NCBI RefSeq assembly: GCF_003018235.1
Contig: NZ_CP027439.1
Direction: 5' to 3' (one strand)
From: Escherichia coli
Lineage (GTDB): Bacteria > Pseudomonadota > Gammaproteobacteria > Enterobacterales > Enterobacteriaceae
Length of the DNA: 64,000 nt
Shown: one piece after another, positions 30,001-33,000 of the stretch
How the letters are laid out: every line of letters starts with the position of its first letter
Numbering within the stretch: position 1 is the first letter of the stretch
Position numbers: made by a program

Positions 30001-33000
30001 TATCTGGCTGAACCCGCTGACCACGGATGACGGAAACGGGCTGCGGGGATTCAGTGGTGAAGGCCGTGTGAAAGGCAGCGGGGATGCGCAGTTCGTGGCC
30101 CTGCAGGGCAGCCGTAACGGCGAGAGCCTGCTGGCTGATAATATGCAGGATGGTGTCCGGATTGCCCGTGATAACCCCGACAGCGGTGTGGTGGTGAGAA
30201 TCGCCGGTGAAGGTCGTCCGTGGAATCCCGGTGCCATCACCGGTGGCCGCGTGTGGGGGGATATCCCGGACAACAACGTCCAGCCGGGAGCCGGAAATGG
30301 CGAGCCGGTCACGGCAGAGGTACTGGCACAGCGGCAGGCTGAAGAGGCCATCCGCCGTGAAACGGAACGCCGTGCGGATGAGATTGTCAGAAAAATGGCG
30401 GAGAACAAACCTGACCTGCCGGACGGCAGAACAGAGCAGGCTGCCAGGGAGATTGCCGGGCAGGAGCGTGACCGGTCTGCCATATCTGAACGGGAAGCCG
30501 CGCTGCCGGAGAGTGTGCTGCGTGAATCACAACGGGAGCGGGAAGCGGTCCGGGAGGTTGCCCGGGAAAATCTGCTGCAGGAACGACTTCAGCAGATGGA
30601 GCGGGATATGGTTCGTGACCTGCAGAAAGAGAAAACCCTGGGCGGAGACTGATACAGGAAGACAAACACTGATGACAACGGATAACACGAACACGACACG
30701 TAACGATTCACTGGCTGCCCGGACCGATACCTGGTTGCAGTCGTTGCTGGTCTGGTCACCCGGACAGCGGGATATCATCAAAACGGTGGCACTGGTGCTG
30801 ATGGTACTGGACCACGCAAACCGCATTCTGCATCTGGACCAGACGTGGATGTTTCTGGCCGGGCGTGGAGCCTTTCCGTTGTTTGCCCTGGTGTGGGGGC
30901 TGAATCTGTCCCGCCATGCGCATATCAGGCAGTCGGCCATTAACCGGCTGTGGGGATGGGGAATTATTGCCCAGTTCGCGTATTATCTGGCAGGCTTTCC
31001 GTGGTATGAGGGGAATATCCTGTTTGCCTTTGCAGTGGCGGCACAGGTGCTGACGTGGTGTGAAACGCGCAGTGGGTGGCGTACAGCAGCGGCCATTCTC
31101 CTGATGGCACTGTGGGGGCCTTTGTCCGGCACCAGTTACGGCATTGCCGGGCTGCTGATGCTGGCAGTCAGCCACCGGCTGTACCGGGCGGAAGACAGAA
31201 CGGAACGTCTGGCGCTGGTTGCATGCCTGATGGCTGTTATTCCGGCGCTTAACCTTGCCACCAGTGATGCCGCGGCGGTGGCCGGCCTTGTGATGACGGT
31301 GCTGACCGTTGGTCTGGTGTCCTGTGCAGGGAAATCATTACCCCGTTTCTGGCCCGGAGATTTTTTCCCGACGTTCTATGCCTGTCATCTGGCTGTGCTG
31401 GGCGTTCTGGCGCTGTAACGGGTGTGGTATCTTTGGCCGCAAGAGGATGATTCGTCAGAGGCAGAACACAGCATGACAGAGCAGAAGCGACCGGTACTGA
31501 CACTGAAGCGGAAAACAGAAGGGGGGACGCCTGTCCGCAGCCGGAAAACCATCATCAATGTCACCACGCCACCAAAATGGAAGGTGAAAAAGCAGAAGCT
31601 GGCCGAGAAAGCAGCCCGGGAAGCAGAGCTGGCGGCCAAAAAAGCGCAGGCCAGACAAGCGCTGTCCATTTATCTGAACCTGCCCACGCTGGATGAGGCT
31701 GTGAACACCCTGAAGCCCTGGTGGCCGGGATTATTTGACGGTGACACGCCCCGGCTTCTGGCCTGCGGTATCCGGGACGTGTTACTGGAAGACGTGGCGC
31801 AGCGGAATATCCCGCTCTCGCATAAAAAACTGCGCAGGGCGCTGAAGGCCATCACCCGTTCAGAAAGCTATCTTGGTGCCATGAAAGCCGGTGCCTGCCG
31901 GTATGACACGGAAGGGTATGTGACGGAGCATATTTCTCAGGAGGAGGAAGCGTATGCGGCAGCGCGTCTGGATAAAATCCGCCGCCAGAACCGGATAAAG
32001 GCAGAACTTCAGGCCGTGCTTGATGAGAAATAAAAAGGCCTCCCCGAAAGAGTGAGGAGGCTGAAACAATAAGGCTTAAAAGGAAATAACTTCCGTACCC
32101 GAAAGGAAGCCAGTCCACTGAATTATTTACCACAATAATACTGACGACTAAAAGGGAGGAGCAGAAAAATGAATGGATTCAGAAACAGTTCACGGAACGG
32201 TCAGGTCTGGCGTTACCAGCGTGCCGGCGGGCGGGCCGTTATTCTGGAGGTCAGTGGACGCTGGATGGAAGCGGCAGAAGCATGGCGACGGGCTGCCTGC
32301 ATAGCTCCCCGGACAGACTGGCAACAGTTTGCCCGGAAAAGGGCTGAACACTGCCACCGGCGCTGCCGGGGAAGGGTGTAACGAAAAAAGCAGCCTTCAT
32401 TACACCAGAAGTCAGAAGGCTGAAAGGAGTTTATGAGATTTGCTTTTTTTAATATCCGGTCGGGCAGTATGACCGGACAGTTCTGAGTAGCACAGAGTTT
32501 TTTCCGTATTAAGTCGTGATTTTATATTTTGTGATTTATTTCACAAAATAAGGTGTTATTCATTGTGTGCTGCAATATTCAGGATGCCTGAAATACAGGT
32601 GCCATTTATCTGATATGGAGAATAACATGATGAAATATATTCCACTGGTATTATTTATCTTTTCATGGCCGGTATTGTCTGCAGATATTCATGGACGGGT
32701 TGTTCGTGTACTGGACGGTGATACCATCGAGGTCATGGACTCACGGAAGGCGGTGCGGATCAGGCTGGTAAATATTGATGCACCGGAAAAGAAACAGGAT
32801 TATGGCCGGTGGTCAACAGACATGATGAAATCACTGGTCGCAGGAAAAACGGTTACCGTCACATATTTTCAGCGAGATCGTTATGGTCGTATTCTCGGGC
32901 AGGTTTATGCGCCAGACGGAATGAATATTAATCAGTTTATGGTCCGGGCCGGGGCTGCCTGGGTATATGAGCAGTACAACACAGATCCCGTGCTGCCTGT

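Follow-up and report, generated by a model that had tools for sequence, protein, structure and literature searches.

The window analysed here, a stretch of 64,000 nt from Escherichia coli contig NZ_CP027439.1, carries on its plus strand a complete finO gene, which follows traI and traX where an F-type tra operon comes to its distal end. The gene and its immediate surroundings comprise the following features.

30672..31418, plus strand: traX, pilin acetylase, 248 aa; Pfam TraX 231 bits; 94% identical to F TraX
31419..31472, plus strand: traX-finO spacer of F type, 54 nt, holding the finO ribosome-binding site and without an orf286-type gene
31473..32033, plus strand: coding sequence of finO (186 aa and stop), an RNA chaperone of the FinO/ProQ family and fertility-inhibition protein
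32038..32061, no strand assigned: G+C-rich hairpin with an 8-bp stem and a T-run on the minus strand, placed 5 nt past the stop codon of finO

The finO frame opens with an ATG at 31473, runs through 186 codons and closes with a TAA ending at 32033, with neither an internal stop nor an insertion. A ribosome-binding site (GAGG, 31458-31461) is found 11 nt 5' of the ATG. The original prediction of an uninterrupted finO of 186 aa was confirmed by this ORF together with the NCBIfam model NF010317 'FinO', which matched the product over positions 1-186 of 186 at 360 bits (cut-off 136). An in-frame GTG at 31422, corresponding to a protein of 203 aa, was considered as an alternative start and rejected in favour of the ATG because the match to the curated model spans its full length from there.

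Both domains expected of a FinO protein were detected, namely Pfam FinO_N (PF12602) at residues 1-62 (132 bits) and ProQ/FinO (PF04352) at residues 73-177 (93 bits). PDB 1DVO, the crystallised FinO of R100/R6-5 and the reference for a functional fertility-inhibition protein, was identical at 147 of 152 positions (97%, E = 7e-94) over residues 33-184. Full-length FinO of R100 shares 178 of 186 residues with the window protein, and F FinO, rebuilt without IS3, shares 181 of 186; G18, G135 and A164 of the window protein differ from both. The N-terminal 44 residues, which are needed for repression (PMC7555446), are present and include Trp36 within PPKWKVKK. ProQ, FopA and RocC have the FinO/ProQ fold in common with FinO but differ in RNA targets and genomic contexts; the ProQ and RocC structures gave weak sequence matches (E about 1e-4, about 26 bits), and the ProQ equivalog model scored 32 bits, below its cut-off of 127. 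No second FinO-domain gene was found elsewhere within the 64,000-nt window.

Codon comparison of the window finO gave dN/dS values of 0.13 against R100 finO and 0.20 against F finO, indicating that the gene is under purifying selection. This exact allele is very common, being present and annotated as FinO on 476 public contigs, and at least 5000 plasmids in PLSDB carry a full-length FinO. A chance ORF is ruled out by the dN/dS values together with the occurrence of the exact protein on the 476 contigs. The segment 31473-32033 is best explained as a functional finO that closes the transfer region of an F-like plasmid (MOBF12 group A, IncFII). Its product is predicted to bind FinP and repress conjugation, given 96-97% identity to FinO proteins that have this activity.

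Comparison with the finO regions of F and R100

In the F plasmid (NC_002483), finO is split by IS3 after nt 396 (codon 132) with duplication of AGC. The frame in this record reads for 396 nt up to the record end, then enters IS3 (TGATCTTACC...GGATCA), after which AGC is read again and the frame continues. The statement that finO of classical F is disrupted by IS3 could thus be read directly from the F sequence. At the corresponding site the window reads ...TCAGAAAGCTATCTT... without interruption, so that finO is unbroken where that of F is split (finO::IS3); F is derepressed. The spacer between traX and finO has the same length of 54 nt in F, and the sequence 5' of the finO ATG is identical in the two plasmids.

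R100 FinO has the same length of 186 aa, the same domains (FinO_N and FinO/ProQ) and the same site after traX, and differs by the substitutions G18E, V21T, A54T, T72S, G135C, A160V, A164E and K186Q (window to R100). The gene order 3' of finO is also shared with R100: an ANR-family ORF, nuclease, hha, DUF2726 and the IncFII repA genes. The R100/R6-5-type arrangement upstream of finO, which is associated with strong repression, is however not found in the window: where the window has the 54-nt traX-finO spacer, R100 has an 861-nt coding sequence, orf286, for an alpha/beta hydrolase of 286 aa. R100 furthermore carries an R100-type traJ/finP allele whereas traJ of the window is F-type. The order traI-traX-finO is common to ten other contigs encoding this exact FinO, and the short spacer was observed in all ten.

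A scan of the plus strand between 30600 and 31473 returned no sigma-70-like promoter, and finO is presumably transcribed from farther upstream. An intrinsic-terminator score was obtained for the hairpin at 32038..32061 on the minus strand only, for transcripts heading towards finO. It would act on transcripts that converge on finO, possibly including the AS-pc02 RNA listed below, and not on finO itself.

The transfer operon upstream of finO

The tra genes were located by tblastn of the F Tra proteins, and ORF lengths agreed with the matches.

704..30652, plus strand: tra operon, traY to traI
704-1105, plus strand: traY
1138-1497, plus strand: traA, with a pilin N-terminus of the AQGQDLM type, compared with AGSSGQDLM in F
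Between traA and traI, in order: traL, traE, traK, traB and traP, then trbD, trbG, traV, traR and traC, then trbI, traW, traU and trbC, then traN, trbE, traF, trbA, traQ, trbB, trbJ, traH, traG, traS, traT and traD
25382-30652, plus strand: traI, just before traX

Most of the F Tra proteins had full-length counterparts at 89-100% identity, the majority of them at 95-100%. All essential tra genes are full length, and the exceptions are non-essential or specificity genes. Differences from F were placed at 17126-17521, 21713-22222 and 25379-25382. Only a C-terminal remnant of trbF is left in the window. The artA gene is absent, and so is the vapBC pair between traD and traI, so that traD abuts traI. 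TraG is 89% identical to F overall with a diverged C-terminal part. TraS is 29% identical to its F counterpart, which implies a different entry-exclusion specificity. The plasmid also has a rare TraP variant; in the gene-position index the exact protein was found on short contigs only.

traJ and the predicted finP region beyond the left edge of the window

The window begins inside traJ, the gene whose leader is the target of FinP.

1..611, plus strand: 3' part of traJ, 202 codons, F-type allele, cut at codon 27 by the window edge

Frame 3-611 encodes TraJ residues 28-229 and is 99% identical to F TraJ, which is of the same type. The F-type TraJ equivalog model NF010275 matched window positions 3-608 at 473 bits over its positions 28-229 of 229. 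Apart from the first 27 codons, which lie outside the window, the gene is thus a traJ activator of the FinP-regulated type. Searched at gathering thresholds, Rfam returned no FinP or traJ leader in the window, because the window starts inside traJ at codon 27. Going by the annotated traJ of pSTEC388_3, the start codon lies 79 nt before window position 1. FinP spans from approximately 7 nt inside traJ to 72 nt 5' of the traJ ATG, with its promoter within traJ codons 3-14. Relative to the window, finP and its promoter would fall some 72-150 nt before the first position.

This region was examined in relatives that extend further upstream. The closest of these, referred to here as L004 (GCA_038099465.1, contig ABRRUJ010000038.1), differs from window positions 1-14095 by 2 mismatches in 14,095 bp (99.986% identity). 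It carries FinP (96 bits) and the traJ 5' UTR (124 bits) according to Rfam, and its finP promoter, TTGACG-17-TACGAT, is exactly that of F. Folding of the L004 FinP (-37.1 kcal/mol, z = -6.75) gave the two canonical stem-loops, with 4 nt between them and a 3' tail of 6 nt. Further upstream L004 has traM, an SLT transglycosylase gene and the leading region. FinP, the traJ leader and the finP promoter were present in 14 of 14 relatives sharing this traJ (L004, F, pSTEC388_3, ten contigs encoding an identical TraJ, and a metagenome-assembled contig, L027), with intact stems, a 7-nt loop and an identical promoter throughout. On the strength of these near-identical relatives, finP is very likely present just off the left edge of the window. 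The L027 contig (CAAGKF010000127.1, 30 kb) is filed under a 'Lachnospiraceae bacterium' MAG, yet its F-like traM-traJ-traY region is 98.7% identical to the window, and the contig is probably misbinned and derived from an enterobacterial plasmid.

A mismatched FinP/traJ allele had been put forward as an observation that would refute repression. Such a mismatch is impossible within one plasmid, since finP and the traJ leader are read from the two strands of a single stretch of DNA and are complementary by construction. The allele specificity of FinP comes into play only where plasmids share a host.

Among plasmids that share this traJ, only the 7-nt loop of stem-loop II differs, its surroundings being constant. 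Five different loops were counted in 15 sequences sharing traJ. Written as the traJ strand, most have TTCTCTC, TTCTATC and TTCACGC occur once each, L004 has TTCACGT and F has ACGTGAA. This variation fits the known allele-specific nature of FinP. In FinP, the L004 loop ACGUGAA and the F loop UUCACGU are exact reverse complements of each other, whereas the stems, stem-loop I, the tails, the promoter and the TraJ protein do not differ, as seen when L004:5308-5386 is compared with F (L002:1478-1556) and with L001:2350-2428, at a site about 100 nt to the left of the window. FinP of the L004 type was found in 7 PLSDB records, of which 3 are E. albertii from birds, compared to 318 of the F type. We tentatively suggest, as a possibility with the odds somewhat against it, that the window plasmid carries the rare L004 finP allele, in which a one-step inversion of the hairpin loop would have re-keyed the kissing specificity of FinP and traJ. 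If so, FinP of the window plasmid and F-type FinP would not cross-repress despite having the same TraJ, and the window FinO would still act on both FinP types.

Region downstream of finO and the accessory half

The order of features 3' of finO is the 70-aa ANR-family ORF, a nuclease, an Hha homologue, a DUF2726 protein, CopA RNA and the IncFII repA. The antisense RNAs of the window are listed together with these features.

19610-19695, minus strand: AS-traG antisense RNA, Rfam gathering-level match, 65 bits
28231-28307, minus strand: AS-traI antisense RNA, Rfam gathering-level match, 105 bits
32169-32381: ANR-family ORF (negative regulator), 70 aa, in the region downstream of finO
32278-32463, minus strand: AS-pc02 antisense RNA, Rfam gathering-level match, 178 bits, opposite the 70-aa ANR-family ORF and just 3' of finO
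33113-33343: Hha homologue, 98 bits
34589-34678, minus strand: CopA RNA, Rfam
44511-45765: IS3-family element, 1255 bp, bounded by imperfect terminal inverted repeats of 39 nt and encoding orfA (99 aa) and orfB (rve domain)

Plasmid Hha proteins act together with H-NS, which silences tra promoters. The Hha homologue at 33113-33343 may for this reason be a second plasmid-encoded input on transfer.

An IS3-family element had been noted approximately 12 kb away from finO, and it was indeed located at 44511-45765, 12.5 kb downstream of the gene. The element is 68.6% identical to the IS3 of F over its full length, and is therefore a different member of the IS3 family and not IS3 itself. Its flanking triplets, GTA and AGA, do not form a direct repeat. 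Among 5426 complete E. coli genomes the element was found in one, where 75% of it is present on plasmid NZ_CP051728.1. The accessory half of the window (36000-64000) is a mosaic, and neither PLSDB nor the complete E. coli genomes contain a counterpart to the whole of it. NZ_CP051728.1 is its best match, with segments at 99-99.9% identity; these encode a UbiD/UbiX decarboxylase, a tannase, a LysR regulator, a YadA-like adhesin and RND and MFS efflux genes. Other segments are about 89-90% identical to Klebsiella plasmids.

Predicted repression of transfer by FinOP

In the FinOP system, FinO can repress transfer only jointly with the antisense RNA FinP. It attaches to FinP at stem-loop II and at the 3' tail, guards this RNA from RNase E and makes it pair faster with the traJ leader; the ribosome-binding site of traJ is masked in the resulting duplex, which RNase III degrades, and without TraJ the PY promoter is inactive and the tra operon mostly off (PMC5102898, PMC7690428, PMC8136791, PMC7555446, PMC9977716). 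Upon loss of FinO, TraJ is derepressed and conjugation increases (PMC8136791, PMC7690428).

Applied to the window plasmid, FinO would chaperone FinP by binding stem-loop II and the 3' tail, block RNase E and aid pairing with the traJ leader. The traJ ribosome-binding site would be hidden by FinP with little TraJ being made, which in turn would leave the PY promoter off and the traY-traI operon in the window largely silent. Transfer of the plasmid would then be repressed to a low frequency, apart from transient bursts in new transconjugants. The original prediction that transfer is probably under FinOP repression is supported at the level of sequence by the intact finO, the F-type traJ and the full-length essential tra genes. 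FinP, the finP promoter, the traJ leader, traM and oriT lie outside the window, and finP was read in the near-identical relatives only. Taken as a whole, we consider it likely that finO is functional and that transfer of the plasmid is FinOP-repressed, where we infer the presence of finP, the expression of finO and the repression itself.

The strength of repression is a separate matter. A reading that we regard as a serious contender, albeit with a probability short of even, is that finO works but repression is weak, tens-fold instead of hundreds- to thousand-fold, as the F/ColB2-type arrangement without orf286 would give less, or less stable, finO mRNA and leave transfer partly repressed. It is favoured by the 54-nt traX-finO gap, which is that of F and takes the place of the 286-aa coding sequence of R100, and by the short spacer in 10 of 10 contigs with this exact FinO. 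The title of van Biesen and Frost (1992), cited in PMC7690428, ties the level of fertility inhibition to the concentration of finO mRNA. According to that work, plasmids without orf286 reportedly have less finO mRNA and weaker repression. In the literature searched, orf286 is not mentioned. FinOP is reported to cut transfer anywhere from 10- to 2000-fold (PMC7555446), a wide range that counts against this reading. Repression in the window plasmid may lie toward the lower end of the range on account of the missing R100-type orf286.

Two further readings place the decisive feature outside the window. In an IncF plasmid whose finO is intact, one base change in the traJ 5' UTR (A51G) brought about a strong rise in transfer (PMC10470590), and an intact finO is thus necessary but not sufficient for repression. 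A mutation of the finP promoter, or a change in the traJ leader or the stem-loop II loop that made FinP pair less well, could leave the window plasmid derepressed, given that the region lies to the left of the window edge and that the loop is hypervariable, with the five loops described above. We find this improbable, as all 14 relatives have intact stems, a 7-nt loop and an identical finP promoter, the nearest of them is 2 bases in 14 kb away from the window, and derepressed natural isolates are rare (PMC5102898). Slightly less probable still is that the plasmid is non-transferable, for example through a defective oriT or traM, which would make FinOP control irrelevant and leave finO to persist only as a repressor of co-resident F-like plasmids or as a passenger. 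Both oriT and traM are outside the window, and about one quarter of group A plasmids do not have some essential transfer gene, with some keeping only traI-traX-finO (PMC5102898). The window however holds traY to traX with all essential tra genes at full length, and L004 continues upstream into traM, the SLT transglycosylase gene and the leading region. FinOP repression of a transfer-proficient plasmid remains the reading that we prefer.

Significance for F-like plasmids

An intact finO is the usual state of F-like plasmids and F itself is the exception: among 256 surveyed F-like plasmids, all classical (group A) ones were finO+ except F (PMC5102898). The gene described here is accordingly a known one that is correctly annotated, and no new biology follows from finO in this plasmid since its intactness is the norm. 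The use of the finding is in annotation and in the prediction of plasmid behaviour. Low steady-state transfer with transient bursts in new hosts can be expected of any finO+ plasmid of the F-like kind, as can the formation of few pili, which would lower its fitness cost and its exposure to pilus-specific phages. It should also provide FinO in trans to co-resident F-like plasmids.
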